Notes under the pieces: generated by a model | Told to the model about the DNA's origin: nothing | The model's database searches: none | Seen by the model: the letters and a program-made list of their open reading frames with translations, nothing else | Assembly: GCF_938002845.1 (NCBI RefSeq) | Contig: NZ_CALKZP010000028.1 | Coordinates: 9,805 to 73,804, forward strand | From: an uncultured Campylobacter sp. | GTDB lineage: Bacteria > Campylobacterota > Campylobacteria > Campylobacterales > Campylobacteraceae | DNA length: 64,000 nucleotides | Direction: 5' to 3' | Translations under genes and position numbers: made by a program | Shown here: positions 9,624 to 59,797 of the stretch, one piece after another | Layout: every line of letters begins with the position of its first letter | Numbering within the stretch: the first letter of the stretch is position 1

Positions 9624-9947
9624 ATGGGATACGTTTATTTGGGGCTTGCTATAGTTTTGGAGCTAGCGGGGACCAACTGTATGAAGCTCTCGGACGGATT
9701 TAGTAAGCTGAATTATTCTCTAGCCACGCTAGCGGCATACGGCGCGTGCTTTTATTTTTTAGCGCTTGCGCTAAAAACGGTAAAGCTTAGCGTCGCTTAC
9801 GCTACGTGGGGTGGGCTCGGCATAGTATTAGCATCGCTGCTTTCGGTGTTTTACTTCCACGAAAAGCTCTCTGTGCCCGCGATATGCGGCATAGCGCTCA
9901 TCGTGATAGGCACGGCGATGTGTAATTTCTTCGGCGCAGGACACTAA
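9624..9947 (+). CDS. SMR-family small multidrug/cation efflux protein (EmrE/QacE-like)
   Basis: 107 aa with four predicted TM helices. The conserved membrane-embedded Glu sits in LELAGTNCMK, and an AYATWGGLG motif is present. AAGGAG ribosome-binding site upstream. Confidence 0.8.
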   Translation: MGYVYLGLAIVLELAGTNCMKLSDGFSKLNYSLATLAAYGACFYFLALALKTVKLSVAYATWGGLGIVLASLLSVFYFHEKLSVPAICGIALIVIGTAMCNFFGAGH

Positions 9948-10277
9948 GGCCGCGCGCCTTTACGAGCTAGCAATGCGTTTAAATTTGGGCGAGGAATAGG
10001 GTGTAAAAGCGGATCGAATGACGCAGTGGCTAAATTTTAAGCCGCCCAATCTCGCAAAAATTTCTTATCGATCAGGTCGTAGTTTTTATACAGCCTGTGC
10101 AGCTCGTCTCGCACCTCCATCAGCGCAAAGCCGAGCAGATTTCGCTCACGCCTTTTCCTTAAAATTTTATTTTGAAGCATAGTTTGAAATTTGCCTAAAT
10201 TTAGCCTGTAAGCTGAAATTTAGACAAAATACGGCTAAGCTAGCAAAGCCCGCCAGAGGGCAAGCTTAGCCGCAAAT

Positions 10278-10985
10278 TTAGTCGCAGAAGCGCTCGTCCG
10301 TACGGTATTTCTTGCGCTCGGCGATGTAATCGGCTCTGTTTTTCGGATCGGCAAAATACTGCTTTTGCTTCTGCTGATCGGCTTTGAGCTTTTCTATCAC
10401 TTCCTTTAGAGCCGCCTTGCGGTCGCTAGCCATGGATGGGAATTTATCCGAAAATATCGCCTTGTACGGATGATCCTTTACCCAATCGACCGCCTTTTCG
10501 ACTATGATCTGCTGCTTATCGATGTCGCAAAACGCGTATGGGTTGATCACGTCGCCCGCAAGGTGCATGAAAGCGGAATTTGCCTCTACCGTCTCCATAA
10601 ACATCGCGCCGCTGACGTCGATTACCGAAGCGAAAGAGATAAAGCGGTATTTGCCCGCGTAGAACCAAAACACCGCGTCGTCCTTGAGCCCTAGATCATA
10701 AGCGCGCGCAGCGACGGTCATCAGCGTGGTCGGAGCGACCATATCCGGGGCGTCCTCGATGATTTTGATCGCCTTTTTTAGGCTCGGCACGTCGTTTTTC
10801 ATCAACAGATCGTCGATCGGCTCGTAAACATGCACGTATTCGGGCTTACCCTCCTTAGCCGAATAAAACGGCGAAACATAGATGTCGATCGAAGTGATTT
10901 TTTCCACCTTACCCTCACCCTGGTCTTGGGCGCTCAAAGTCGCAGCCGCCGCCGCGCAGAGTAGCAGTGAGCGAAATTTTTTCAT
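10278..10985 (-). CDS. Secreted/periplasmic hypothetical protein
   Basis: Signal peptide MKKFRSLLLCAAAAATLSA/QD. 235 aa. No recognised family. Confidence 0.7.
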   Translation of the reverse strand: MKKFRSLLLCAAAAATLSAQDQGEGKVEKITSIDIYVSPFYSAKEGKPEYVHVYEPIDDLLMKNDVPSLKKAIKIIEDAPDMVAPTTLMTVAARAYDLGLKDDAVFWFYAGKYRFISFASVIDVSGAMFMETVEANSAFMHLAGDVINPYAFCDIDKQQIIVEKAVDWVKDHPYKAIFSDKFPSMASDRKAALKEVIEKLKADQQKQKQYFADPKNRADYIAERKKYRTDERFCD

Positions 10986-11181
10986 GGTTTCTCCTTCGGT
11001 TAAATTTTGTAAATTTGCTTCGTAATTATACCTTGAAATTTAAGAGCGCGAGCTTGATTTTTAACGAATATATTTTTGCGGAATTTTAATTTTTGCGGCG
11101 GCTCTATTTTCTTTTTATTCGGCTTTATCGCGACGCTTTACGCGGCTAAATTTAAGCGCCGTTAGCTGCTAAATTTACATT

Positions 11182-12132
11182 TCAATTTAGCTCGCTCACG
11201 CAAATTTTATAAATTTTGGCGCCTTTTAAAAGAGCTAAATATTCGCCGTTCCCGTACGAGCCGCAGCCCTCATTTTTGTTATTTTTCGATCCGTCTGCGC
11301 CGAGAAAATTTAGGCTGATTTTTCTGTCGAATTCTAGCGTTTCGCCTTTAAATTTAAACAAAAACAGCTCATCTTTGTCGTTATCAGCCGGGCAAAACAG
11401 CACGCTTCGCTCATCCAGCGCGAAGTCGCGGCTCGCAAAAATATAATCGCTCTTTGAAAATTCTAGCTCGCACGTTTCAATAGCCGCGGAGCCTGGTTTA
11501 TAAGAACTGATTTTCGGAGTATACGCCGTGGCTTGCCCGTCCTTGATACGAACGAAATCAAAGCTACTGCAATAGTGCGCGTAGCACGCGCCGCCAAATA
11601 GATTTATTGCGTAGCAGTCGTGAATCCGGCTGAGGTCAAATCCATAGAGCTTTTCGCCCGCTTCGTTCCAAACGGCGAGTTCGCACTCGTCTCCGCCGAA
11701 GTTGCCGAAGAGCCCGTCGCCAAAATATGAAACGTAGAGGTGCCCGCCTTGCGCTATGATCTTTGCTATGCCGTCGCCCACGCAAATTTTGCCCGTTTGG
11801 GCGCCCGGCTCATCGATAAATTTTAAATTTTCCTCGCTGCGTCTTAACTTCTCATCGTAGCGCGAGCGAGCGTTTAGCAGCGCCCAACGGTTTGGAAAAT
11901 CCACGGGCACGGCGAAGCGGTAGCCGTTTTCGTCCGCGCCGGTTTTTATCTCGCGCAGCCGCCCGTCTCGCATAAATTTTATGACGTATTCGCCCGCATC
12001 CTCGCATAGAAAATATATCTCGCCGTGCTCGGTGATGCCGATGCTGACGAGCTCTCGCGCCTCTTTTGGCGTTAGTTCATAACAAGGGGTTAAATTTAAC
12101 CGCGATTCTTTGATTTTAATGGACTTTGACAT
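11182..12132 (-). CDS. Cytoplasmic hypothetical protein, probably co-transcribed with pyk
   Basis: 316-aa ORF that starts 9 nt downstream of the pyk stop, on the same strand. No recognised motif. Confidence 0.65.
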   Translation of the reverse strand: MSKSIKIKESRLNLTPCYELTPKEARELVSIGITEHGEIYFLCEDAGEYVIKFMRDGRLREIKTGADENGYRFAVPVDFPNRWALLNARSRYDEKLRRSEENLKFIDEPGAQTGKICVGDGIAKIIAQGGHLYVSYFGDGLFGNFGGDECELAVWNEAGEKLYGFDLSRIHDCYAINLFGGACYAHYCSSFDFVRIKDGQATAYTPKISSYKPGSAAIETCELEFSKSDYIFASRDFALDERSVLFCPADNDKDELFLFKFKGETLEFDRKISLNFLGADGSKNNKNEGCGSYGNGEYLALLKGAKIYKICVSELN

Positions 12133-12141
12133 TTTGATTTT

Positions 12142-13611
12142 TTAAATTTTACCGCTAAAGCCCGTTTCCGCCGCGTCGCGGTAGAAATCGATCTGATCTT
12201 TTTTGATGATGCGGATGTAGTCGGTGCTGCCGGGATGACCGCTTTGAAAGCCCGCCGTCATCACATAGGTGCCGTCCTCTTCGATGAGCCCGCGCTGTAG
12301 AGCCTCGCTTATGATACGTGCGAGCAGCGAGTTGATGCTCGTTTTTTCCCTGACCATCGCTGGATTTACGCCCCACACGAGACTTAACGCGTGCGCGGTT
12401 TGCTCGTCGTGTGCGATTGCGATGATGTCGATTTTGGCGCGGTTGCGTGCGAGTTTGATCGCCGAACGCCCCGAGCCCGTGATCGAAAGTATCGCGCCCG
12501 CGCCCAGCCTTGCGGCAAGCGCTGCGGTGCTTGAGGTGATCATATCGGTCTCGTCGTAGAAATCGTAATCGTTAAATTTATCGTAAGGGTAGATCTTTTC
12601 GGTCTCGCGGATCGTCTCGCTCATCGCGGCGACCACGGCTGCAGGGTTTTTGCCGATGGCGCTTTCCTCGCTTAGCATCACGGCGTCGGTGCCGTCGAGC
12701 ACGGCGTTTGCGACGTCGCTGATCTCGGCTCTGGTAGCGCGCTCGTGCTCGGTCATGCTAAGCATCATCTGCGTGGCGGTGATGACGGGCTTTGAGCGGG
12801 CGTTGGCAAGAGCTATGATGCGCTTTTGTATACGCGGGATCTCATAAAACGGCATCTCGATGCCCAGATCTCCGCGCGCGACCATTATGCCGTCGCTTGC
12901 TTCGATGATCTGCTCGATGTTTTCTACAGCGTCGAATTTTTCGATCTTGGCGTAAATTTTAGCCTTTGAGCCCAGCGAGTTTAAAATTTCGCGCACGCGC
13001 AGGATGTCGTTTTGCGACTGCACGAAGGAGATGCCTACGAAATTTACGCCGTGCGCCGCGCCCCAGCGCAGATCCTCGAGGTCTTTTTGCGTTATAACGT
13101 CGATATTTAGGCGGGTGTTTGGGAAGTTCACCCCCTTATTCGAGCTCAAAAAGCCGTCGTTTTCGAGCACCGCTCGCACGCCTTGCTCGCTTACCGCGAC
13201 TACCTTGGCGCGGATTGAGCCGTCGTAGAGGTAGATAAACTCGCCTACCTTCATCAGCGGCAAAATTTCGGGGTGGTTGATACACAGCTCGTATTCGCCC
13301 TCTGCGGTCTTTTTGCCGATGATTTCGCGAGGAAGGAAGGTGATTTTATCGCCCGTTTTTAGTTTAAAATTTTCCTCGAGTTTGCCGACGCGGATCTTTG
13401 GGCCGCTGATGTCCTGAAAGACGCCTACGCGCACGCCCAGGCTCTTTTCTATGGTGCGGATTTTGTTTAAATTTGCCTCGTGATACTCGTGCGTGCCGTG
13501 GCTGAAGTTCATCCTAAAGGCGTTGCAACCCGCCTTTACCATCGCGCTCATCATCTCTTCGCCATCGCTTGCGGGCCCGATGGTCGCTAAAATTTTGGTT
13601 TTTTTAAGCAT
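12142..13611 (-). CDS. pyk: Pyruvate kinase
   Basis: TKILATIGPAS, FRMNFSHG, MVARGDLGIE and the C-terminal regulatory domain are present. The neighbouring mqo matches the arrangement in C. jejuni. Confidence 0.95.
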   Translation of the reverse strand: MLKKTKILATIGPASDGEEMMSAMVKAGCNAFRMNFSHGTHEYHEANLNKIRTIEKSLGVRVGVFQDISGPKIRVGKLEENFKLKTGDKITFLPREIIGKKTAEGEYELCINHPEILPLMKVGEFIYLYDGSIRAKVVAVSEQGVRAVLENDGFLSSNKGVNFPNTRLNIDVITQKDLEDLRWGAAHGVNFVGISFVQSQNDILRVREILNSLGSKAKIYAKIEKFDAVENIEQIIEASDGIMVARGDLGIEMPFYEIPRIQKRIIALANARSKPVITATQMMLSMTEHERATRAEISDVANAVLDGTDAVMLSEESAIGKNPAAVVAAMSETIRETEKIYPYDKFNDYDFYDETDMITSSTAALAARLGAGAILSITGSGRSAIKLARNRAKIDIIAIAHDEQTAHALSLVWGVNPAMVREKTSINSLLARIISEALQRGLIEEDGTYVMTAGFQSGHPGSTDYIRIIKKDQIDFYRDAAETGFSGKI

Positions 13612-13620
13612 CTTTTCTCC

Positions 13621-13917
13621 TTTAAATTTAAAATTTATCGCCGCATTAGGCGAAATTTTACGTGAAATTTTAAAATTTCTAAATTTTAAAATTCGCTAGA
13701 CGAAGGAATTTTAAAATTTTATGGCTCGAGAGAATTTCAGAATTCTACGGCATGGTGAAATTTTAAAATTTCATAGCTTGCTGTGTGGGTTAAATTCTAA
13801 AAATTCGCGTTTGAATGAAATTCAAAAATCCCCTATATATGTGAAGCGCGAGCAAAATTCTAAAATCCTCGCCGAAGTAAAATTTTAAAATTCTTGCCCG
13901 AGCGAAATTTAAAAATT
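13621..13917. repeat. Array of 12 A/T-only palindromic boxes (consensus GAAATTTTAAAATTTC) separated by short GC-rich linkers
   Basis: Boxes start at about 13621, 13652, 13664, 13680, 13705, 13732, 13757, 13791, 13817, 13853, 13878 and 13904. Identical 16-mers occur at 13664-13679 and 13757-13772. The array lies between the mqo stop and the pyk start. Confidence 0.85.
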
Positions 13918-13922
13918 CCTCT

Positions 13923-15269
13923 TTATCGCATCATTTCCGCGTCAAATTTTGCATCATCAAAGCTCACTCCCAAATATTCGCAGGCACTTTTTGCGTCGCG
14001 AAGTGCGTTGCCTAGGCAGCTCGTAGCGCCGGGGCTTGGGGTCATATTAAAGATAATCCCCGGATTTTCGCCTATTCTAGCTTCGCCTAAAAGCAGCTTT
14101 TTTTGCGAGTGTGAGATTACTTGTGGGCGCACGCCGCCAAAGCCCTTGGCATAATAAATATCCTCCTCGCGGATGCTAGGTATGATCTTGCGCGCATTTT
14201 TGACGAAAAGCTTTTTACCTAAAATCGGTATCTCAAAGCCTATATTGCGGATTAAGAAGTCCCTTACCTCGCTATCGCCAAAATTTTGCCAAATGACCTT
14301 GGCTACGTCCATGTCAAAATTTAATGATTGAAAAAATTCCGGCACCGAACGACAGCCCTTGTAGCGCTCAAGCTTCGGCATCGTAAGCGCGGTAGGACCA
14401 AATCTCGTGCAGCCGTCTGCGAGCAAATCCGGATCGCCGTGAAGCGCGGCAAATGGAAGCTTTGGGTTTTGTACCATGTAAACCTTGCCGTTTAGAAGTT
14501 TTTGCTTGGTTAGATAGAAGCTGCCAGCGATGCAAATCGTGCTAAGATCCTGCCCAAGCCCCATTTTGTGCGCGAGCCATAGCGAGTGAGCGCCCGCATC
14601 TACGACTACGAAATCAGCACTTAGCGAGAGTCTATTTGCGGTGCGGATATAGAACTTATCGCCTACTTTAGTGATGTTTTGCACCTCGGTGTTTAGGTAC
14701 AGATCGCAGGTTTTACCCTCCACGTTTTTAGCGTTTTGCACGAAGGAATTCGCCATCGCGCCGTAATCGATCGTCGTGTAAACTCCCGATTGCACGCCCA
14801 TTGCTACGATATCCTCCACTCGCTCCTCGCCGCGTCCGTCAAAAACTAACTTGGGCTCGATTTTTTTGAGCTCTTCCTTGTCGAAAAGCTGCAGATACGG
14901 ATAAAGCTCTTTAAATTTTTCAAAGCGCTCTTTAATTAGCTCTACCTCGCTCTCGCCCACGCCAAGAGCCATTTTCTGCCCCTGAAATAAAAATTTATTC
15001 TCATATCCGTGCTTTTGGCAATATTTCACGATCATATCCGCCTTGCGCTTGACTTCGGTCGCTTTTTGCAGGTCGTAGTTGGTCTCGATGTCGCCGCAAT
15101 GAATCGTCTGGGAATTTGCACTGGCTTTAGAATTCAGCGTCGCAAGCCCTTCGTATTTTTCAAGTAGAGCTATATTTTTGATTCCGCTAAATTCCGCCAG
15201 TACATATGCTAGCGCGCTGCCCGTGATACCGCCGCCTATGATGATTACTTCGTAATGTTTTTCTTGCAT
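13923..15269 (-). CDS. mqo: Malate:quinone oxidoreductase (epsilonproteobacterial FAD-dependent type)
   Basis: N-terminal FAD fold YEVIIIGGGITGSALAY. Its length (~448 aa) and its position next to pyk match C. jejuni Cj0393c and H. pylori Mqo. Confidence 0.8.
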   Translation of the reverse strand: MQEKHYEVIIIGGGITGSALAYVLAEFSGIKNIALLEKYEGLATLNSKASANSQTIHCGDIETNYDLQKATEVKRKADMIVKYCQKHGYENKFLFQGQKMALGVGESEVELIKERFEKFKELYPYLQLFDKEELKKIEPKLVFDGRGEERVEDIVAMGVQSGVYTTIDYGAMANSFVQNAKNVEGKTCDLYLNTEVQNITKVGDKFYIRTANRLSLSADFVVVDAGAHSLWLAHKMGLGQDLSTICIAGSFYLTKQKLLNGKVYMVQNPKLPFAALHGDPDLLADGCTRFGPTALTMPKLERYKGCRSVPEFFQSLNFDMDVAKVIWQNFGDSEVRDFLIRNIGFEIPILGKKLFVKNARKIIPSIREEDIYYAKGFGGVRPQVISHSQKKLLLGEARIGENPGIIFNMTPSPGATSCLGNALRDAKSACEYLGVSFDDAKFDAEMMR

Positions 15270-15390
15270 GCCCTTTCCTTATCGAATTTGGCTGCAATTG
15301 TGCGAAAATTTCGCTTAAAAGCTAGTTATAAAAGCGTGAATTTAGATGATTTTATATAAAATTCGCACCATTTCATTTTGGGAGTAGTAT

Positions 15391-16575: not shown

Positions 16576-16750
16576 TGCTTCGCTTTTAAGTTGCGTTTTT
16601 ATGCCACGCGGCTAAACTAAGCGCCAGATAAAGGTGTATGCGACTTAAATTTGATCGGCAATTTAGGCGAGGTGCGGGTGATTAAAATGCAGGCGATTTA
16701 CTTATTTGCAGCTGCGTAGTTCGGCAATATCTTTAAAATTTTAATTTATG

Positions 16751-16780
16751 AAAGCGGCGATAAAATTTTATCGCCGCTTT
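16751..16780. terminator. Perfect 30-nt palindrome, candidate bidirectional terminator
   Basis: AAAGCGGCGATAAAATTTTATCGCCGCTTT is a GC-rich stem flanked by an A run and a T run. It lies 175 nt downstream of the TRAP solute-binding protein gene. Confidence 0.5.
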
Positions 16781-17527
16781 AGCATTTAAGTTAAGGCGTG
16801 CAATTCGCATCACTGCGTTTAAAGCCCAATTTAAAAGCTGCTCGGTTGCCGCCGCACAAGGCTAGAATTTTAGAAAGCTTTGAGCCTCCTCCTTTTGTCT
16901 TATTCTTTTATCTCTTATGTTATTTAATCTTGATATTTTGCCGTGCTTGCTTGCGGGTGACATTGAGCGAGAGAGAATTTAATCTTGCTTTTTCATTTCG
17001 CGTAGTTAGCGGAGGAGCTTTGGCGAAGCGCGCCAATCTGAGATTTTAAATTAGTAGCGTTCATAAATTCCACATTTTAAAATTTTAATGTTTTTGTCTT
17101 GCCGATACCGCTTTTAAATAGAATTTGCTTTGGGTTTTCTTGCTGTATAAAACAGTGAACTTCAAATAAAATGCAAAATTTTAAAATTTTGGGCCTGAAT
17201 ATCACAAGTAATGAGAATTTAAAATTTTGTCTTTCGGAGGTTAAGTACAAAGCGCGTTAGGAAAAATTTTATAGGTCAAATTTCATTTTAAGCGATTGCA
17301 GATTTAAAGCTTGTATGCAAATACTTTTAAAGCCTGCTCTAGTTAGAATTTATCACTAAACTAGACGGGCTTAGCCTTGGAATTTCACCGCGTCAATTTT
17401 AAAATTTTGCGCGAGTTAGGCTTAAAATTTTAAAATTCGATTCTACCTGCGAAAACTCTTAAATTCCACGGTTTAGAATTTTGATGGAGAATTTTGCCAT
17501 AACGCTATTTCTTGGGATGCGATAAAA

Positions 17528-17553
17528 CTACGCGGCATGCAAAAGCCGCGTAG
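17528..17553 (-). terminator. Candidate metK terminator hairpin
   Basis: CTACGCGGC-atgcaaaa-GCCGCGTAG. On the minus strand it is followed by TTTTAT. A second hairpin (GCTAGGC...GCCTAGC) sits at 17562-17587. Confidence 0.55.
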
Positions 17554-17631
17554 AATATTGAGCTAGGCTCGCTGCTGCAAGCCTAGCGAATGTCGTAAGC
17601 TAAAAAAGGCGCTACTGCAAAGCGTAAAATT

Positions 17632-25567: not shown

Positions 25568-25599
25568 TCAGCGGCTCTAGCCTGCGGCGGAATTTTGAT

Positions 25600-26345
25600 C
25601 GGGCGGCCCTGGCTTGAAATTTGAGCGGTTATAAATACGGTGCGTTTTAAATTTGCTCGCATAGCGCGCCGCCATGCGCGGTTAAATTTTATCACGGGCG
25701 GCGGCGGGATTGCGCTCTTTCGTTGCGAGCAGATCGCAAATCGGCATCGGGCGGAGTAAATTTAAAATTTAAACATGCGGCTTCTTGGGCGGCGCTCGCT
25801 CGTGAAAGGTATAAATCCGCGGGGGCTAAATTTAAACGCGGCGAAGCGGCGTTTAAATTTGCTTTTGTCGCGCGATGGCGACGCGCTGCGAGATTAAAAT
25901 TTCTCGATTTAAAAAGCGCGTAGGTTGGAGCTTAGTGCCGTGGCAAGCGGTCTTTGCCGAATAAAATTCCGGCTCGCGGCGGCGCATAGTATGCAACGAT
26001 AGACTTGATTGCGGCGTACCGATAAGCTAAATTACGATCTATCGCAGCGCGCGGCTGCACGGTCTTGGTTTATAGCGAGGCTTAGAATTTTAATCACGCA
26101 GATAGATTTGCACCGCGAGTTGAAATTCGGCCGCATGCGTTGCGGATTAAAATTTCGCGCTTTATAAAATTTACGTATCAGGCGCCGCGATCGCGGGTTA
26201 AATTCTGCGGTGCGCGCTTCACGGTACGCGGTTTTAATTTTGATTGCACTGGGCGGGCGCGCCGCAGGCTGAAATTTAACTCGCGCACGGATTGAAATTT
26301 TAATCGCGCTAGATAAGCTCGCCGCCGGCTAAATTTAACGCAAGC
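25600..26345. repeat. ~0.75-kb intergenic AAATTT-box / GC-linker array
   Basis: More than 20 boxes by eye (ggttaaattttatc, gtaaatttaaaatttaaac, ggctaaatttaaacgcgg, gtttaaatttgc, gattaaaatttc, gaattttaatcacgc, ggattaaaatttcgcg, ggttaaattctg, ggttttaattttg, ctgaaatttaac, ttgaaattttaatcgcgc, ggctaaatttaac). No credible ORF on either strand. Confidence 0.8.
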
Positions 26346-26372
26346 GCGCCAAAGCGTGGAAGGAGTAAAATT

Positions 26373-27241: not shown

Positions 27242-27706
27242 ATGAAAGAACTGAGTAAAAATCGCAAGGCATTTCACGATTTTACGATACTTGAAAGCTT
27301 TGAAGCGGGCATCGTGCTAAAGGGAAGCGAGGTCAAAGCTCTGCGCGCGGGCAGGGGCAATCTCAAAGATAGCTTTTGTCGCGTGATCCGCGGCGAGCTG
27401 TTTTTGCTAAACGCGCATATCAGCTATCTTGAAAGCACAAACGCTCACTTTCGTCCCGATGAAGGAGCTGCGCGAAAGCTTTTAATGCACCGAAAGCAGA
27501 TCGATAAACTGCTTGGCGCGGTTAGCAAAGAGGGCCTTACCATCGTGGTTTTGTCGCTGTATCTCAATGATAAAAACCGCGTAAAGGCACGTATCGCTTT
27601 AGCAAAAGGCAAAAATCTGCACGACAAGCGCGAATCGCTAAAGCGCAAGGAAGCCGACCGCGAAGCGCAAAGCGCGATGAAGCGATACGACAAGCATTCA
27701 TTTTAA
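27242..27706 (+). CDS. smpB: SsrA-binding protein
   Basis: KNRKAFHDF...[13 protein letters not shown]...HISYLE...[10 protein letters not shown] are present. Confidence 0.95.
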
Positions 27707-27761: not shown

Positions 27762-28460
27762 ATGAAGAAATTTTTACTATTATGTTTGGCGATTTTTGTT
27801 TTAAGTGGCTGCGGAGATGATTCGCAGAAAAAGACGGGCTCTGCTGGCGAGAATCCTGCCGCGAGCGAGAATCAGATGGCAAAAAATTCCGCTCAAGATA
27901 AAAATGGCGAGCGTATTGGCGGAGAAAGTGGCGAGGAGGTAGCTTTTGCGCCGTTTAAAACGGGCGAGCGCCTTACGCTTAAAAGCGTCGTAGGCGGCGA
28001 GGTAACGATTGAGCGGACAGAAAAGGGCTTTAAGCTTGCGGACAGCGATAAAATTTTAATGTTTGATATTTTTGGTACGTACTGCCAGCCGTGCCGCATC
28101 GAAGCGCCGCATCTGATGGACTTTCAGTTAAAAAATTCCGCGGATTTTCTAATGGTCGGCTTGATTTATTTTGAGGACATTACGGACGCGCAAGTGATCG
28201 AAAATTTTACGAAAAAGTTTAATGCGTATTATTTCATCTCCAATTCAAAACAAAACGAGCGCATAGTGGGTCAAATTTTAAGCGACATCGGTTATCGTCA
28301 CGCGCTTTCGATCCCTTTTAAGGTAGTACTTAAAGATGGAAAATATCAAAGGCTTACCGACATCAATGAGGGCGATGAGCGGGGCAAGCCGTATTACTTA
28401 GGCATGGTCGATACCGATGTGATAAAAAGCGATATTGCCAGGATAAAAAATGGCAACTAA
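27762..28460 (+). CDS. Thioredoxin-fold lipoprotein (TlpA/ResA-like thiol:disulfide oxidoreductase)
   Basis: Lipobox FVLSGC and CxxC motif GTYCQPCRIEAP. Occupies the same position as C. jejuni Cj1106. Confidence 0.75.
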   Translation: MKKFLLLCLAIFVLSGCGDDSQKKTGSAGENPAASENQMAKNSAQDKNGERIGGESGEEVAFAPFKTGERLTLKSVVGGEVTIERTEKGFKLADSDKILMFDIFGTYCQPCRIEAPHLMDFQLKNSADFLMVGLIYFEDITDAQVIENFTKKFNAYYFISNSKQNERIVGQILSDIGYRHALSIPFKVVLKDGKYQRLTDINEGDERGKPYYLGMVDTDVIKSDIARIKNGN

Positions 28461-28755
28461 AACCGGTGTGCAGATTCACACTCGCGCCAAAACAAAATCT
28501 TTCGTGCCTCGCCCGTATAAAGTAATTTTGCTAAATGACGACGTGACGACGATGGATTTCGTGGTTTATATTTTGATGGAGATTTTCGCCAAAAACTTTA
28601 ACGACGCCGTAGATTTAATGATGAAAGTTCATAGGCAGGGTCGCGCGGTTTGCGGCGCGTATCCCAAAGAGATAGCCGAGTGCAAGCAACAAGCGGTTTT
28701 ACAAGCGGCAAAGGCCGCAGGATTCCCTCTTAGATGCGAGATCGAAGAGGATTAA
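28450..28755 (+). CDS. clpS: ATP-dependent Clp protease adaptor ClpS
   Basis: YKVILLNDDVTTMDFVVYIL...KVHRQGRAVCG. Overlaps the upstream gene by 11 nt. Confidence 0.9.
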   Translation: MATKTGVQIHTRAKTKSFVPRPYKVILLNDDVTTMDFVVYILMEIFAKNFNDAVDLMMKVHRQGRAVCGAYPKEIAECKQQAVLQAAKAAGFPLRCEIEED

Positions 28756-33718: not shown

Positions 33719-33724
33719 ATTTGC

Positions 33725-34160
33725 TAAATTTCGCGAGGTTTTTTAAAATTTTGCGACTTGCGACGACGAAAATTCGCGGAATTTGGCGCGGCTTTTTGAA
33801 ATTTTACGGCGTTTAAATTTTATGGCGCGGAATTTTGGCGGCATAGAATTTCGTGGCGTAAATTTTAACGGCACGAAGATGGAATTTTATCGCGATGCGG
33901 GATTTTGGCGCGGTAGTAAAATTTTATCACGGTTTGAAATTTTGCATGGCGCCGCTCGCTGCACTAAAGCAACTGAATTTTATCGTGATGCGAAATTCGG
34001 TGCGGCATAAAATTCCGTATCAAGGCAAAATTTTAAATTTGCCGCCGTGCAAATAAGCGCAAGTAAAACGGCGAGCGAGCTTGAAATGTTAAATTTAAGA
34101 CGCGCAATGTATCTGCGTAGCCCTGAAATTTAGCGAGTTTGAGAGCGAAATTTAACTATG
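33725..34160. repeat. Intergenic array of RAATTTT boxes followed by GGCG-type linkers (~16-20-bp period)
   Basis: Units include ggaatttggcgcgg, gaaattttacggcg, taaattttatggcgcgg, gaattttggcggc, gaatttcgtggcg, taaattttaacggc, ggaattttatcgcg, ggattttggcgcgg, aaattttatcacgg, gaaattttgcatggcg, gaattttatcgtg and gaaattcggtgcgg. Confidence 0.8.
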
Positions 34161-34188
34161 AAATTTAACGCAAAGAAAAGAGGAAAAT

Positions 34189-35445: not shown

Positions 35446-35480
35446 AATTTAGCCGAGGTTTAAATTTAGATTTTATCAGT

Positions 35481-35526
35481 GCGGTTTACTTTTTATGTTT
35501 TGAAGCTCAAACATAATGTAAGCCGC
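35481..35526 (+). terminator. Nested hairpin downstream of the dehydrogenase gene
   Basis: The outer arms GCGGTTTAC and GTAAGCCGC pair with one G-U. The inner arms ATGTTT(T)GA and TCAAACAT also pair. No clear U-tract. Confidence 0.4.
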
Positions 35527-35677
35527 AAAATAGATAAAATTTTGTATAAGTGAAAGTTAACCCTTATAGTTATATAATCGCGGCACTTTCGGGGAAATAA
35601 AACGAGTTGTCGCTTTAGGTTTTGTTTAAAAGCTAAAGCTCTTTGCAGGCTAGTGTTTTAAGGCTAAAGGATCAAAT

Positions 35678-36997
35678 TTGAAGACCTTTTTGAAGACCTT
35701 GCTTAAAATCATAAAAAACATCTTTAAAGGTATATTTTATATAGTTGTTTTTATAGGTCTTTTTGCCTTGGCGCTCAAAGTTCAGACCGGCAGATTTAAA
35801 TCAACCTCCCATCACTATACCGTCACTGCAAATACCAAAGTAGATCCTAACTCCGAGCTAGCTAAATACGTAACACAAAAGGAGATAAACGCAGTTGGCT
35901 ATAGATATTGGGATATAGACGAAGAGGAGGTTAGAGATAACCCCACGATGGAACTTTTACGCAGGAGTTTAAAATCAAAAGATACGGATAAAATTTTAAA
36001 ATTTATGCAGGATAATAATATAAGCGTAGATACCCCTCTTCATTTCGGCGTTACCCCTTTGATGTACGCTAGCTTTTACGATGACGAAAAGACAGCAAAA
36101 AAGCTGATAGAGATGGGTGCCGATCCTCATAAGAAAGATAATTACGAGCTATCTCCTATGGCATACGCTATGGAAAATAACGCCACTAAGTCGGTTAGGC
36201 TTTTACTAGATAGCGGAGTTAAGTTTGACGAAGTAGAGATAGTGCAAGAAACCTACGGCATTAGAGATGTCGAAAATTGGATAGATTCTGTAAGCTTTGA
36301 CGAAAACGCTACTCCGATCATACATTACCGCACGAAAGAGGTTCTTTTTAGCGGCGGAGGCGAGCCATATTATTTTATCAGCCACCTAGTTAGAAACAAT
36401 ATGTACGATATAATGAAAATGGTGCTAGAGAGTGGTTATAGACCGTATACCTACTCCACTTTCAATATGGGAGAGGTCTATGTTTCAAATAAACTAGAGG
36501 AGATACCGAGCTATAGAAACATAAAGAATACCCATAAAAGATATGGAGTAGAGGAGTTTAGGCTTTATAAATCGGTATATGGCGATCTGTTAGACGTGCC
36601 CGAGCCCGGAGCTATGATAGATCTACTTTTGCAATATGATATAGGCGGAATCCCAAACGATGAATTTTTAAAAAGAATGTATGATGATAAATGCTATAAA
36701 GAATATAGGTATGATATAGAAAGCGAATATTATAAGAAAGCAACTAAAGCTAGGTTCGAACTTGCTTTTTTACAAAAACATTGTTCCGACAAGAACGCTA
36801 CCTTTAAAAATATCAAAGAGTATATACTATTTGCGGTAGAGCGGAAAAAAGTTCGCGTGATAGAATTTACGGCAGATGAAAGAAATATAAAAAATCCCAA
36901 CTTCCATATATCTAAAGAGGAAGTCGAGAGGCTAACGAACGATTATAAAGAATATAAAAGAAATTTATTTAGTAAAGAAGCGGAAGATCAAAAATAA
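35678..36997 (+). CDS. Membrane-anchored ankyrin-repeat protein in a markedly A+T-rich islet
   Basis: TTG start, then N-terminal TM helix IFYIVVFIGLFALAL. ANK-like repeats are present (GVTPLMYASFYDDEKTAKKLIEMGADPHKKD; LSPMAYAMENNATKSVRLLLDSGVKFD). The ~230-aa C-terminal domain is unrecognised. Confidence 0.7.
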   Translation: MKTFLKTLLKIIKNIFKGIFYIVVFIGLFALALKVQTGRFKSTSHHYTVTANTKVDPNSELAKYVTQKEINAVGYRYWDIDEEEVRDNPTMELLRRSLKSKDTDKILKFMQDNNISVDTPLHFGVTPLMYASFYDDEKTAKKLIEMGADPHKKDNYELSPMAYAMENNATKSVRLLLDSGVKFDEVEIVQETYGIRDVENWIDSVSFDENATPIIHYRTKEVLFSGGGEPYYFISHLVRNNMYDIMKMVLESGYRPYTYSTFNMGEVYVSNKLEEIPSYRNIKNTHKRYGVEEFRLYKSVYGDLLDVPEPGAMIDLLLQYDIGGIPNDEFLKRMYDDKCYKEYRYDIESEYYKKATKARFELAFLQKHCSDKNATFKNIKEYILFAVERKKVRVIEFTADERNIKNPNFHISKEEVERLTNDYKEYKRNLFSKEAEDQK

Positions 36998-37060
36998 TAG
37001 GCGGCTAGGCAACCCGCTGTGAAATAATTAAATTTAAAGCCCCATCTAATTACCGAAAAA

Positions 37061-37086
37061 GATAAAATTTCGCCGATTTTATCGGC
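37061..37086. terminator. Alternative hairpins between the convergent ankyrin gene and hemH
   Basis: Either GATAAAAT-ttcgccg-ATTTTATC or GCCGAT-ttt-ATCGGC can form. Confidence 0.4.
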
Positions 37087-37156
37087 ATTGTATTTGGCCT
37101 GCGAACTCCGCAAAAGTATAAAAACTCGAATAGAAAAGTTAAATTAATCTCTAAAT

Positions 37157-44744: not shown

Positions 44745-44889
44745 ATTTGGATGGAAATCTAAATTTGATCCACTTTCGGAAGCCCTTGCATGAATTGCGT
44801 TTATTACACAAACATAAATATGCTAATTTTATAGTTTGTTTAAGGTTGTAGGCGCTAAAATGCGTAATCATTTTATTTAGGGGTTAAGA

Positions 44890-45540
44890 TTGCAGGATTT
44901 AGAATTCGAAAGTAAAAAGATAAGAATAGAAAATACTCGTGTAAAATTCGGCAAATTTTTTACGAAATTATGTTTTATATATTTTTTATATTCTCTTAGC
45001 GCCTTTATAATTCCTAAAAATATTTTAGATATTTCTCCTGCGTGCTTGAATTTCGTAAATTTTATGAAAAGCTATTTTCCAAATATCGAAATTATCGGTA
45101 GTATTAGCCCATACACCCAACTTTCTGAATTTTACGTTAGTATTATGTGGATATACGGGATTATTATTTTTGCGGTTTCTAGCTTATATTCATTGGTTTA
45201 TTATATTTACTTTTGCAGATATGATGATGATTTTATATTGCTTTCAAAAAAGAAGTGTGAAAACGATTGCCCGTTTTTGTTGCTTCCGTTTATGTTTGGT
45301 CTTGGTATTTTTATGTTTGAGGTTTATTATACCGGATATTTTGCAAGCAGCGGTATAAGCATAAGAACAAGCCATTTTATGCCGGAATTTCAAAGTAGAT
45401 TTTCAATTTTTGGATATATTATTTTCTTTCAATCTGGTTTTTCTCTTTCTGGTTCCGTAATATTAATGTCTGCATTTGAATTTATTTACAAAATATATTT
45501 CTATTTAAAAGAAGTGAAAGATGCAGAGCAAAGTCAATGA
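44890..45540 (+). CDS. Polytopic membrane protein in a very A+T-rich islet, function unknown
   Basis: TTG start preceded by AGGGG. 216 aa with 4-5 hydrophobic helices, rich in Phe, Tyr and Ile. No recognised family. Confidence 0.6.
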   Translation: MQDLEFESKKIRIENTRVKFGKFFTKLCFIYFLYSLSAFIIPKNILDISPACLNFVNFMKSYFPNIEIIGSISPYTQLSEFYVSIMWIYGIIIFAVSSLYSLVYYIYFCRYDDDFILLSKKKCENDCPFLLLPFMFGLGIFMFEVYYTGYFASSGISIRTSHFMPEFQSRFSIFGYIIFFQSGFSLSGSVILMSAFEFIYKIYFYLKEVKDAEQSQ

Positions 45541-45581
45541 AAAGAGCGGTGTATTGAATTAAAAATTTGGAGTATTATCGT

Positions 45582-46232
45582 ATGGAATTTCAAAGTTATA
45601 AATCTGAAATGCCTCTTTTTATGATCAAAGATTATTGGACTAAAATCAGCACAGAATGTTATTTAATATTAGCTGTATTTTTAGTTATATTCCTATTTTT
45701 CTGCAGAGGAAGTGCTTGGGCATACCAGTTTTTAGGAGCCGTTACTTTTTTGGTGGGAATTTTATTTATTAATAAACATAAATTTTTAAATTTCTATTCC
45801 GATAGAATAGAATATAATTCTTTATGCAAAAATTATAACGATGTATATTCGGTACATAAAAGTGTAAAGACTTCTAATTTCGATAAAATCGCTATTTATA
45901 AATTTTCTGGACTCGTGATTGAAGACGCGTGCAAATACAATGCCAATATAACTAGGTTTAAAAAATTTCTCTTGCTAATTTTATCGTACGCTCTACATCC
46001 GATAAATCTTCTTTGCTTCGGTGTACTTAAAATTTTAAGAAGAATAGATAGCATAAATTTAAATGTTCTAATTTTATTAGATAGTACTCATAGTAATTAT
46101 TTTGCCATTCCGCTAACTATGTTAAGTGAGTATGAACGAGTAAATTTGAAAAAGTATTTAAAAGACAAACTAAATCTAAATCTTAATAATATCGAGGTAA
46201 GGGATAGATTTATAGATATAAATTTTATATAA
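45582..46232 (+). CDS. Membrane protein in a very A+T-rich islet, function unknown
   Basis: ATG 45582 lies 9 nt downstream of GGAG; the tracked TTG 45567 is the alternative start. Two N-terminal TM helices plus a later hydrophobic segment. No recognised family. Confidence 0.6.
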   Translation: MEFQSYKSEMPLFMIKDYWTKISTECYLILAVFLVIFLFFCRGSAWAYQFLGAVTFLVGILFINKHKFLNFYSDRIEYNSLCKNYNDVYSVHKSVKTSNFDKIAIYKFSGLVIEDACKYNANITRFKKFLLLILSYALHPINLLCFGVLKILRRIDSINLNVLILLDSTHSNYFAIPLTMLSEYERVNLKKYLKDKLNLNLNNIEVRDRFIDINFI

Positions 46233-46304
46233 AATTTTTTAAAACCCTTTATTTCAGTATATTTTAATAAATTCCAGCTTAAGCAGATAAATTTTATCTT
46301 TTTA

Positions 46305-46318
46305 TTGACGAGCCTCAA
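46305..46318 (+). promoter_or_regulatory. Crp/Fnr-family-type box TTGAC-N4-CTCAA upstream of qNOR
   Basis: Matches the TTGAT-N4-ATCAA consensus at 8 of 10 positions. Its centre lies about 41.5 nt upstream of the start site predicted from the TAAAAT -10 hexamer at 46341-46346. Confidence 0.45.
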
Positions 46319-46376
46319 TGCTTATCGAAATTTAAATAGGTAAAATTCTCTCCTAATTTCAGTTAAAGGAGTGAGA

Positions 46377-53857: not shown

Positions 53858-55507
<1,650 letters not shown>

Positions 55508-57167: not shown

Positions 57168-57798
57168 CCTAGGCGGCACGCTAGCGCAATTTATATGCAT
57201 AGGCGGTTTAAATTTTGCTGCCTCTATAAGATCGCGATACTGGCGCGGTGTGCTAAACACGAACGGCTGACGTTTTTTCGGCTTTGCCGCCGTGCGAAAC
57301 AATGCCCTAATGCTGCAATTAAAGATAGAATGTTCATATTTCATCTACTTGCTTTGAATTTCACGGCTGCATGCCGCGCTGCTAGGATAAACCATACTGC
57401 ACTCGTTTTGTGCGAGTGAGCGCTGCGACGATACTGCGGTTAAAATTTCGCGGAAATTTCAAAAGCTTAATTTTGTAATTTTACGTCGCAGGACCTCGCT
57501 TACCTGCCAAGTTTGCGGAATTTTGCTTGGCTACGTGGTTTATTAAATTTCGCTTGCCATAAAATTTTGTATAGTTTTATTTGCTACCGGAATTTTTAGA
57601 ATTTTATTAGATGGCGGAATTTTATAGAGCTCTATTCGCTAAAATTTCGCGGCGAAATGAAATTTTTCGTAAGTGCGAAAGCAAAATTTAGTGGGTAAAA
57701 TCCTGCAGGCGAAATTCTACGGCGGCTAGCGAGTGCGAATTATTAAATTTTAACCCCGTTTTGAATAAAATAGCGCAAAAAATTCTAAAGGCTTAAAT

Positions 57799-58866
57799 TT
57801 GAAAAATCGCTATCCGACCCGCCAAATCTCCGTCGGCTCCGTCAAAATCGGCGGCGGCGCGCCCATCTCCGTGCAGTCGATGAGCTTTTCTAAAACGAAG
57901 GACGTGGAGGGCACGCTAGAGCAGATAAACCGCCTGTATTTCGCGGGCTGCGACATCGTGCGCTGCGCCGTGCTCGATAAGGCGGACGCGGATGCGCTCG
58001 CACAGATCAAAAAAAGCTCGCCGCTTCCCATCGTAGCGGACATCCATTTTAATTTTCGCTTGGCGTTGCAGGTCGCGGAGTTTGTCGATGCCATCCGCAT
58101 CAATCCCGGCAATATCGGCGGCAAGGAGCGTATTAAAGAGGTCGTGCGCGCATGTAAAGCTCGCAGCCTACCTATCCGCATCGGCGTAAATTTGGGCTCA
58201 CTCGAGGAGCAGTTCGAGCAAAAGTACGGCCGCAGCGTGGAGGCGATGGTACAAAGCGCGCTGTATAACGCCGCGCTGCTGCAGGATGAGGACTTTAGCG
58301 ACATCGCGATCTCGCTTAAGACCTCCGACGCGCCGAGCACGGTGGCTGCGTATCGCGCGCTGCGCCCGCTGTGCGAGTATCCTTTTCATCTGGGCGTGAC
58401 TGAGGCGGGGACGAAATTTCACGCGAGCATCAAGAGCGCGATCGCGCTTGGTACGCTTCTAATGGAGGGGATCGGCGATACGATGCGCGTGAGTATCACG
58501 GGCGAGCTTGAGGAGGAGATCCGCGTCGCGCGTGCGATCCTGCAGGACGCGGGCGTGCAAAAAAGCGGCGTCAATATCATTTCGTGCCCTACCTGCGGGC
58601 GTTTGCAAAGCGATCTGCTAAGCGCGATCAAAATTGTCGAAGAAAAAACCGCGCATATCAAAACGCCGCTAAATATCAGCGTCATGGGCTGCGTCGTAAA
58701 TGCGATCGGCGAGGCGAAGGGCGCGGACGTGGCGATCGCGTTCGGCAACGGGCGCGGCATCGTGATGCGCCACGGCGAGGTGGTCGCTAAACTCGATGAG
58801 AGCAAGCTTGTGGAGCGGTTTTTGCAAGAGGTCGAGGACGAGGTGCGGGCTCGCGAAGGAGCGTGA
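57799..58866 (+). CDS. ispG: 4-hydroxy-3-methylbut-2-en-1-yl diphosphate synthase
   Basis: TTG start. [25 protein letters not shown] and SCPTCGR...[10 protein letters not shown] Fe-S motifs are present. Confidence 0.9.
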
Positions 58867-58989
58867 GAGCTGCGGAGCGTCTAGCCGGTTAAAGCGGTTA
58901 AAAGCCGCTACGGCGCGCGGCTCAGCCTCGCGGCTCGGCGTTTCAGCGCGCTGGACTCACTGCGGTTCGTTTAGGCTCATCAATACAGC

Positions 58990-59797
58990 GTGTCTTGGCG
59001 TAAAATTTTAAAATTTAATTCCGAGGCAGCGCTTTTAAATTTGAGTCTTTGGGAATGCGGCTTGGAATTCCGGATTTAAATTTTAACTCTGGAATTTTGT
59101 TTTTAAATTTTGGGTTTGAAATTTTAACTTTGCAATTCGCCGTGAAATTTTATTTTAAAATTTGAGCCTCGCGATTCGGTGCTAAATTTGCGGCGTGAAA
59201 TTTCGATACGTAAAATTTTAAACCATAGAGCTCAGCGGCGTAAAATTTCAAGGCACGGCGCGGGAGTCGGGCCGCATTAAATTTAGCGTGACGGACGCAC
59301 CGTTTGCGAAACAGCGAGCGAGCGTTAAATTTAAATGCCGCGGCATTTGGCTCATTGTTTAAGGCATTTGAAAAATTTCAGATCGCGACGCTCGGTTTAA
59401 GTTTAGAAAGGTTCGCTCGCCGCAGCTCGGGCGCAAAATTTAATGCCCGAGCCGGGGGCGCTAAATTTTAATAGGCGGGCTTAAAATTTTAAAAAATTCT
59501 AAGCCCTAGCGAAATTTCAAGCTCTATGAAATTTCAAAATTTTAAATCCGCCGCGGCAGCCTTTGGGCGCAGCCTTAAATCGCCGCAGTATATGCGGCAT
59601 AAGAGCGTAGCGGCTTAAAATTGCGTGGCTTTTTGAAGCGCGAAATTTTCAAAGCTGCGATAGTTCTAAGGTCTCGCGACGAGCGTTCAAAGCCGCATCG
59701 CTTTTCAAAAGCGCGTACCGGGGCTGTGGATTAAAATTTACGATTTTATAGAGCTTAAAATTTAGACGCGCAAAAGCGCGCGAAACGAGGGGAAGCG
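58990..59797. repeat. ~0.8-kb intergenic AAATTT-box / GC-linker array upstream of dnaB
   Basis: Dozens of boxes, for example gtaaaattttaaaatttaattc, ttttaaatttgag, ggatttaaattttaac, tttttaaattttggg, tgaaattttaac, gtgaaattttattttaaaatttgag, gctaaatttgcgg and gtaaaattttaaacc. No credible ORF. Confidence 0.8.

Follow-up and report, generated by a model that had tools for sequence, protein, structure and literature searches.

Which property of the DNA is maintained in the short spacer between an mqo-type gene and pyk of an oral Campylobacter, and what might maintain it? The spacer lies in a stretch of 64,000 nucleotides (nt) from an uncultured Campylobacter sp. (assembly GCF_938002845.1, contig NZ_CALKZP010000028.1), here called the window, which has a G+C content of 48% and from whose first nucleotide all positions are counted. 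It spans positions 13612-13922 (311 nt, 30.5% G+C) and is flanked by two minus-strand genes. The upstream one, an open reading frame (ORF) at 13923-15269, matches Mqo/DAO and encodes an mqo-type FAD oxidoreductase of 448 aa, and the downstream one, at 12142-13611, encodes a protein of 489 aa with pyruvate kinase domains (E 1e-110). An initial annotation, made from the letters alone, described the spacer as an array of twelve palindromic A/T boxes, each carrying one or two RAATTY hexamers (R, purine; Y, pyrimidine), and linked these to the site methylated by CtsM in C. jejuni. That link proved apt, and the feature is genuine, stands up statistically and is conserved. The array is the densest local case of a hexamer, mostly AAATTT, that is iterated across the genus, and not a discrete element made of 16-nt boxes. 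We give a probability of about 0.5 to the reading, drawn from comparative analysis, that the spacer is a local accumulation of this genus-wide iterated palindrome and that RAATTY is tied to self-recognition or uptake of DNA through CtsM-type N6-adenine methylation (m6A).

The evidence that the hexamer is the maintained unit comes from an alignment of the orthologous spacer from 49 genomes of the C. gracilis clade, in which nucleotide diversity (pi) was computed for each class of position. Diversity is lowest in the AATT cores (pi = 0.008) and increases over the R/Y flanks (0.060) and the other A/T positions of the spacer (0.075) to the G/C linker positions (0.125), which evolve at the neutral rate, the value for the 4-fold synonymous sites of mqo and pyk being 0.127. 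Since 4-fold sites with an A/T consensus have a pi of 0.126, slower mutation at A/T sites is not the cause of the conservation of the cores. The two middle bases of the 14-16-nt boxes rank with the most variable positions, and the constrained unit is therefore the hexamer and not, as had first been proposed, the 16-nt palindromic box. RAATTY is intact in 962 of 982 hexamer instances (98%), compared with 75% of control hexamer windows taken from the same spacer and judged by the same criterion, and the frequent polymorphisms in the flanks are A/G or T/C swaps which preserve the motif. Two further arrays, flanking ispG, were compared among 26 metagenomic orthologues, and here pi of the cores is 0.039 versus 0.117-0.162 in one array and 0.100 versus 0.230-0.278 in the other (both P < 1e-6). 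The pattern extends into genes: in mqo, pyk and dctP, 7% of the third positions within cores are polymorphic versus 27% of other A/T third positions (P = 0.026), and in the C. showae group (10 genomes) pi at coding third positions is 0.023 in RAATTY cores versus 0.152 elsewhere (P = 1e-4). These comparisons show each hexamer to be subject to selection or to a restoring drive.

The conserved hexamer is also present in large excess. The spacer holds 21 RAATTY sites; shuffling its mononucleotides yields 1.09, and Markov simulations of it yield 4.3 (order 1) and 8.5 (order 2). The window as a whole has 644 sites, compared with 216 in dinucleotide shuffles. Per kb, we count 6.8 sites in coding DNA, 23.5 in intergenic DNA, both far above composition, and 68 in the mqo–pyk spacer, the densest 300-nt cluster of the window. 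For coding DNA, 29 Pfam-supported genes were shuffled such that the protein and the codon usage were kept or, as the strictest null, all dinucleotide counts as well; the observed 215 sites compare with 80.7 under the first scheme (2.7 times, z = 19) and 152 under the second (z = 11.7). AAATTT is the most over-represented hexamer in intergenic and coding DNA alike, exceeding the mononucleotide expectation 17.7-fold in coding and 30-fold in intergenic DNA and the strictest null 1.7-fold, and is evenly distributed over the three reading frames. In coding DNA, 83% of the AATT tetramers lie inside RAATTY (AAATTY 589 versus AAATTR 50). When longer units are considered, the 14-mer AAATTTTAAAATTT is found 56 times in the window with at most two mismatches (2.85 expected), nine times in the mqo–pyk spacer and nearly always in other intergenic regions for the remainder. 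AAATTT-type patches set in DNA of average composition recur in the long spacers 16576-17631, 33719-34188, 57168-57798 and 58867-59797; linkers differ between these arrays, and only the hexamer or the 14-mer recurs.

The source genome belongs to the C. gracilis group of oral Campylobacter. Its pyruvate kinase shares 97-99% identity with the enzyme from ~54 species-level genomes that bear the label uncultured Campylobacter or C. gracilis, and 62-68% with the enzyme from C. showae and other Campylobacter lineages; the type strain of C. gracilis has a genome of 2.28 Mb and 46.55% G+C (PMC4574385). In this Campylobacter of 47-48% G+C, RAATTY is ~9 times as frequent as composition predicts. Across lineages, densities obtained from 9-310 kb of partly redundant loci, not whole genomes, amount to 10.1 sites per kb at 35% G+C, 9.6 at 40%, 11.2 at 45%, 7.6 at 47% (C. 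showae group) and 10-12 at 47-48% (C. gracilis clade), and are thus roughly steady (7.6-12 per kb) while the mononucleotide expectation drops from ~3.7 to 1.1 per kb. Published counts correspond to about 8.4 per kb for C. jejuni (27,514 motif positions on both strands, ~1.64 Mb, 30.5% G+C; PMC4294202), and for C. fetus 24,750 positions are given (PMC13436318). In the higher-G+C lineages 83-91% of AATT tetramers sit inside RAATTY. The motif is enriched in all pyk locus groups examined, and in metagenomic ispG loci it is enriched 5-7-fold, with ~80% of AATT inside RAATTY, only where IspG is at least 70% identical; enrichment is absent from the outgroup ispG loci at 61-67% and 48-51% identity (a small sample). 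The initial choice of RAATTY as the relevant motif is supported by where the constraint falls, R-AATT-Y, and by enrichment in coding and non-coding DNA of related Campylobacter and not of outgroup loci.

One of the ispG lineages (IspG 75% identical) harbours an array of its own. Downstream of ispG, at 2770-2950 of locus L120 and identically in L119, ~10 tandem copies of the 13-14-nt unit ATCTAGAATTCCT form a ~57-nt higher-order repeat, and each unit has a RAATTY site, mostly GAATTC. A GAATTC-specific switch of the motif in this lineage was considered and dropped, as 8 of the 12 sites belong to this tandem array of a single organism.

The layout of the mqo–pyk spacer is as follows, with features for which no strand is given being unstranded.

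12142-13611, minus strand: pyk, the downstream gene; 10 RAATTY sites.
13612-13922: mqo–pyk spacer, the whole array with 21 RAATTY in 12 boxes; densest RAATTY cluster of the 64-kb window.
13621-13638: box 1, TTTAAATTTAAAATTTAT; AAATTT at 13624 and 13631; just upstream of the ribosome-binding site and start codon of pyk.
13638-13653, minus strand: small G+C hairpin TCGCCTAATGCGGCGA located between box 1 and box 2, stem of 5 bp; orthologues differ in the loop and share the stem.
13652-13660: half box GAAATTTTA; AAATTT at 13653.
13664-13679: box GAAATTTTAAAATTTC; AAATTT at 13665 and 13673; same sequence as the box that starts at 13757.
13680-13694: box TAAATTTTAAAATTC; AAATTT at 13681, AAATTC at 13689.
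13705-13721: box GGAATTTTAAAATTTTA; GAATTT at 13706, AAATTT at 13714.
13731-13746: box AGAATTTCAGAATTCT; GAATTT at 13732, GAATTC at 13740; not pure A/T; absent in orthologues with 19-nt or 26-nt deletions.
13757-13772: box GAAATTTTAAAATTTC, second copy of the identical 16-mer; AAATTT at 13758 and 13766.
13791-13806: box TAAATTCTAAAAATTC; AAATTC at 13792 and 13801; within a 62-nt deletion of the orthologues L040 and L054.
13817-13831: box GAAATTCAAAAATCC; a single hexamer, AAATTC at 13818.
13853-13868: box CAAAATTCTAAAATCC; a single hexamer, AAATTC at 13855; alleles GAATTT and AAATTT (pyk sense) 30:19 among orthologues.
13878-13893: box TAAAATTTTAAAATTC; AAATTT at 13880, AAATTC at 13888.
13904-13919: box GAAATTTAAAAATTCC; AAATTT at 13905, AAATTC at 13913; the stop codon of mqo is 4 nt away.
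13851-13921: tandem-repeat stretch (Tandem Repeats Finder: 25-nt period, 2.8 copies, 73% matches, 71 nt).
13923-15269, minus strand: mqo-type gene, the upstream gene; 10 RAATTY sites.

Gene names, coordinates, the count of twelve boxes and the presence of RAATTY in each of them agree with the initial annotation, as do the start-to-start distances, which we recomputed from 13664 onward as 16, 25, 27, 25, 34, 26, 36, 25 and 26 nt; six of the nine fall at 25-27 nt (P about 0.003 under random placement of boxes). The two 16-mers reported as identical lie within identical 18-mers (13662-13679 and 13755-13772). The description of the boxes as A/T-only holds for seven of the twelve; five contain C or G, e.g., GAATTTCAGAATTC. 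One of the twelve is a half box of 9 nt. Linkers and surroundings were taken to be G+C-rich, which they are not: the non-hexamer positions of the spacer have 48% G+C, equal to the genome average. Inside the boxes hexamers are spaced at 8 nt, and this spacing is kept without insertions or deletions.

The longer period appears to have a local origin. The spacing of about 2.5 helical turns that was noted at first is not genome-wide: the spacings of 8, 25-26, 33-34 and 51-52 nt are peculiar to the mqo–pyk spacer and no 25-26-nt peak is found in the other intergenic DNA of the window, where the arrays at 59078-59137 and 57563-57641 have units of 14 and 27 nt according to Tandem Repeats Finder. Self-identity of the spacer is highest at shifts of 25, 26 and 52 nt, and at a shift of 52 nt the linker G/C positions match at 22 of 26 in the clade consensus (z = 3.5, 89 shifts tested), with most linkers being dissimilar. 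Taken together, the 25-nt tandem-repeat call and the linker match at 52 nt suggest that an old tandem duplication of a ~52-nt two-box unit gave rise to the 25-26-nt period. The array is still in flux: deletions of 8, 16-19, 26 and 62 nt among the orthologues begin and end in boxes, some orthologues having lost part of the box pair at 13680-13694 by a deletion of 8 or 16 nt, and the orthologous spacers range from 251 to 313 nt and from 15 to 21 hexamers. L012 and L028, two sister lineages, have gone further. Most of the array is replaced by unrelated G+C-rich sequence, leaving a total of only 6-7 hexamers, located at the two ends, and the pyk-proximal AAATTT...AAATTTAAGGA segment is retained together with pyk. 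Their mqo is only 83-84% identical whereas pyk is 97-98% identical, a difference suggesting that recombination had a boundary within the spacer or close to it. The replacement sequence (at about 2170-2500 of the loci L012 and L028) has internal repeats of its own, e.g., TTTGCTCG and GGCGCG...TTTG.

What, then, could maintain so many short sites? In C. jejuni the orphan m6A methylase CtsM targets RAATTY, and the mark is required for DNA uptake (PMC10046745, PMC8468864, both citing Beauchamp 2017); that RAATTY is the CtsM site, as initially noted, is documented (PMC4294202, PMC10046745). RAATTY is likewise m6A-methylated in C. coli and C. fetus as well as in C. jejuni, and a homologue of C. hyointestinalis is reported to recognise it (PMC4294202, PMC8627207, PMC13436318). 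RAATTY may be maintained here as the target of an orphan methylase of the CtsM type, and uptake, or another methylation-dependent process favouring motif-rich DNA, would let the motif accumulate everywhere. Non-coding DNA, free of coding constraint, would then come to consist of RAATTY hexamers set in DNA of average composition, and the duplication of a two-box unit long ago may have added the period seen in this spacer. A role in the expression of pyk or mqo, if any, would probably be confined to the promoter-proximal ~60 nt. It is tempting to extend this to a wider proposal, namely that RAATTY is a genus-wide uptake or self-recognition sequence read through its methylation, that selection or drive holds ~10 sites per kb at any G+C content, biasing synonymous codons and making non-coding arrays, and that arrays like the mqo–pyk one are preferred entry points; in this full form we regard the proposal as possible but rather doubtful.

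Several observations weigh against the methylation-linked uptake reading. Preservation of R and Y in the flanks is not significantly beyond the general transition bias (15:3 versus 72:25). Under the strictest coding null only AAATTT is in excess, GAATTY and AAATTC being at expectation (72 versus 68.8), so that the signal could be specific for A3T3 with a tolerated G/C flank. As judged by Pfam, no methylase or competence protein is encoded by the 52 ORFs (90 aa or longer) of the 64-kb window, and the steadiness across lineages rests on the sampled loci described above. Moreover, at ~10 sites per kb a fragment should be taken up almost equally well with one site fewer; that each AATT core hardly varies would require either very efficient weak selection or a function for each site. 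Conservation of the cores hence exceeds what a diffuse uptake bias would naively predict, and a reader acting on each site, whether a DNA-binding protein or groove shape, stays a serious rival.

In such a scenario the hexamers would be sites for an abundant DNA-binding protein, or present a DNA shape, i.e., the narrow minor groove of R-AATT-Y, the array would act as a patch that organises the nucleoid or loads protein, with methylation being incidental. We consider this unlikely, yet the most probable of the alternatives. A core diversity as low as that observed suits function of each site better than a diffuse uptake bias, the coding enrichment under the strictest null is carried by AAATTT and not by the whole RAATTY class, and the 8-nt spacing within boxes is retained without indels. 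Steps within purine runs and pyrimidine runs, devoid of pyrimidine-purine steps, constitute a rigid, narrow-groove class of DNA. However, enrichment at synonymous sites with z = 19, evenly over frames, is unusual for protein sites and typical of uptake sequences and iterated palindromes, and in the lineage with 75% identical IspG the enrichment of GAATTT/AAATTC (7.0-fold) next to that of AAATTT (7.2-fold) fits a degenerate RAATTY better than an A3T3 shape. Neighbouring boxes 25-26 bp apart would be expected to lie on opposite faces of the helix, with no net curvature. Campylobacter is not known to have H-NS, Fis or IHF, and no candidate protein is known.

Less probable still is a role confined to this locus, with the array acting in cis on pyk and/or mqo as an A/T-rich upstream promoter element, as an operator array for a dimeric regulator, or as the mqo terminator. 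The spacer must contain the pyk promoter if pyk is transcribed alone, and its proximal part, boxes and hairpin at 13621-13660, is invariant and retained even in the lineages that lack most of the array: box 1 (13621-13638) is identical in 49 of 49 orthologues, with near-identical sequence in both of these lineages, and probably overlaps the -10 region of pyk. The sole -10 match of the sigma-70 type is TAAAAT on the minus strand (13660-13655), preceded 17 nt upstream by TTTAGA; orthologues have either T or C at the first base of TAAAAT, which is therefore only a weak promoter candidate. This one weak match included, scans of the spacer with promoter and terminator consensus sequences remained at chance level, and Rfam searches of 13300-14200 returned only sub-threshold chance hits, none near a gathering score. 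The whole spacer as RNA folds more stably than shuffles (z = -3.65), which is a trivial consequence of the boxes being self-complementary; a conserved terminator hairpin is unsupported, with compensatory change in 1 of 24 pairs (RNAalifold, 15 distinct orthologues, first 80 nt). Campylobacter sigma-70 promoters reportedly have a periodic A/T-rich upstream signal, which Petersen et al. 2003 and Dugar et al. 2013 are said to have described and which would speak for a promoter element here.

The distal array, by comparison, is evidently dispensable for pyk, since L012 and L028 lack most of it and yet keep the gene, and in the C. showae group the region upstream of pyk is short and ordinary. Equally dense arrays are found in many other spacers, including one between convergent genes (16576-17631); hence arrays occur where no promoter is needed. 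These findings make the initially envisaged pyk-specific regulatory array unlikely. A classical regulatory region looks different, as is seen next door: the 121-nt divergent spacer at 15270-15390, between mqo and a gene for a DctP-family solute-binding protein, is almost invariant in 32 genomes (pi 0.00-0.013 in all position classes) and is thus kept at every position, quite unlike the mqo–pyk spacer. It holds short palindromes, e.g., GCGAAATTTTCGC, and is likely a real operator/promoter region.

A neutral degenerate minisatellite, or a selfish miniature repeat, with sequence content not under selection, is a most improbable account. It would be in keeping with the tandem-repeat call, with the self-identity peaks and linker matches and with the varying number of hexamers, and the clean 13-14-nt array of ATCTAGAATTCCT (~10 copies) occupies a comparable spacer in another Campylobacter lineage. 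But diversity of the AATT cores is 16-fold below that of linkers and 4-fold sites, intactness of hexamers clearly exceeds that of the control windows, and the repeated unit is also enriched and conserved inside genes. The suggestion of a selfish element made in the initial annotation is not supported by the anatomy either: the unit has 6 nt, linkers differ between arrays, and neither terminal inverted repeats nor target-site duplications nor a longer unit in common were seen. The account is largely refuted as a complete explanation; duplication explains the period and not what is conserved.

Coding AATT outside RAATTY is depleted about two-fold relative to the synonymous nulls (47 versus 85-93, z = -6 to -7; the same 29 genes), and CAATTG, TAATTG and GAATTG are at 0.04-0.23 of the mononucleotide expectation. 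This deficit looks like avoidance, e.g., restriction-type pressure on AATT that is not methylatable, which would act on top of the RAATTY excess. That such pressure alone purged unprotected AATT, tolerated it only where RAATTY methylation protects, and so left an apparent enrichment is hardly credible, for although it would account for the deficit, purging cannot yield the absolute excess of AAATTT and leaves the conservation of individual hexamers unexplained, and we know of no AATT-specific nuclease in this group.

Other parts of the window differ in their content of the motif. The signature is weaker in the low-G+C islands. One of these (44745-46370; 28% G+C), with two ORFs devoid of Pfam hits (44890-45540 and 45567-46232), shows another style of A/T runs, a 3.6-fold RAATTY enrichment and 64% of AATT inside RAATTY, and was probably acquired horizontally. 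The weakest signature seen (2.3-fold) is that of 35446-37156 (36% G+C), in which the ankyrin-repeat protein gene at 35678-36997 is another candidate for foreign origin. The fewest RAATTY sites, 0-1.9 per kb compared with the coding mean of 6.8, are found in the highly conserved groEL (53864-55507), ispG (57799-58866), smpB (27242-27706) and clpS (28450-28755). The spacer at 16576-17631, between a dctP-family gene and metK, comprises 1,056 nt with no ORF of at least 90 aa. It contains 22 RAATTY sites, and AAATTTTAAAATTT boxes occur in several perfect copies; small genes or RNAs could lie hidden within it. A second dense array at 33719-34188 (21 RAATTY in 470 nt) consists of single hexamers (GAATTTT or AAATTTT) with linkers of the GGCG/CGCG type, an architecture differing from the double-hexamer boxes of the mqo–pyk spacer. 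Two regions of ~800 nt each (25568-26372 and 62771-63553) also have no ORF of at least 90 aa at a coding-like G+C content of 51-54%, with RAATTY being low in the second (6.4 per kb), and may represent missed or degraded genes or RNA genes. Directly downstream of pyk, at 9645-12132, synteny and sequence conservation are lost, diversity rising from ~0.05 to 0.27-0.40 and alignment occupancy falling; the ORFs at 11182-12132 and 10278-10985 have no Pfam match, and the region is variable within the clade.

Although RAATTY is known as the uptake password of C. jejuni, so far it has been regarded as a motif that is frequent in an A/T-rich genome. If its link to methylation and uptake holds in the C. 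gracilis group, Campylobacter would possess a system akin to the DNA uptake sequences (DUS) of Neisseria and the uptake signal sequences (USS) of Pasteurellaceae, with an evolutionary footprint legible in any genome, and the texture of spacers in which A/T boxes sit in average DNA would be explained. Competence and self-recognition could then be predicted for uncultured oral species, and the orthologous spacers, with 6 to 21 sites, would provide a test bed for the dependence of uptake on site number. The wider proposal, if true, would mean that a genome had for the first time been shown to be shaped by a counterpart of DUS/USS that depends on methylation. Should the link fail, the site-by-site conservation would point to an abundant AATT-binding factor, which would also be worth finding.

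Comparison with known systems places the array as follows. Repetitive extragenic palindromes and bacterial interspersed mosaic elements (REP/BIME), miniature inverted-repeat transposable elements (MITEs) and intergenic minisatellites are likewise repeated, partly palindromic, intergenic and variable in copy number between strains, but they are built of units of 20-150 nt, are confined to spacers and often have G+C-rich stems or terminal repeats, whereas here only a 6-nt core is common and conserved, genes are enriched too, and linkers are unrelated between arrays. The upstream signal of Campylobacter sigma-70 promoters shares the genus and the A/T-rich runs upstream of the -10 box, and the proximal boxes may belong to the pyk promoter; that signal, however, precedes a TAnaAT -10 box and has a period of 10-11 nt over ~50 nt, compared with spacings of 8 and 25-26 nt over 300 nt in an array type that is also present where no promoter is needed. 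The cyanobacterial palindrome HIP1, GCGATCGC, comes closer, being short, present in vast excess in coding as well as non-coding DNA of a single clade, overlapping a methylation site and linked to transformation efficiency, on which its effect depends on methylation and homology (bioRxiv 10.1101/2024.09.10.611283). It differs in having 8 nt, in being G+C-rich, in belonging to another phylum and in not being known for quasi-periodic intergenic arrays.

DUS and USS are, like RAATTY, short and clade-specific motifs, over-represented in genes and spacers, denser in non-coding DNA and conserved; for RAATTY we observe over-representation in both compartments, clade specificity (in a small sample) and conservation of sites beyond neutral. 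They are thought to accumulate by uptake bias, and the same bias is proposed here. Yet DUS and USS have 9-12 nt, are non-palindromic, depend on a receptor specific for their sequence and number about one per kb, tandem arrays being atypical, while RAATTY has 6 nt, is degenerate and palindromic, occurs ~10 times per kb and, in C. jejuni, must be methylated to be recognised. In the literature searched, no paper links RAATTY or AAATTT enrichment with C. gracilis or other oral species, and Beauchamp 2017 may already note over-representation. The closest relative is the system of C. jejuni CtsM, an orphan D12-class m6A methylase of the Cj0208 type, which has the same motif with the same degeneracy in the same genus, and where the motif is very frequent too; the 21 sites of the spacer and a constraint that follows R-AATT-Y conform to it. 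What the mqo–pyk spacer and its orthologues add to the published work on CtsM and RAATTY (PMC4294202, PMC8627207, PMC13436318), in which these features are not described, is an excess beyond composition, conservation site by site, a density that is roughly constant over the G+C contents sampled and dense intergenic arrays.

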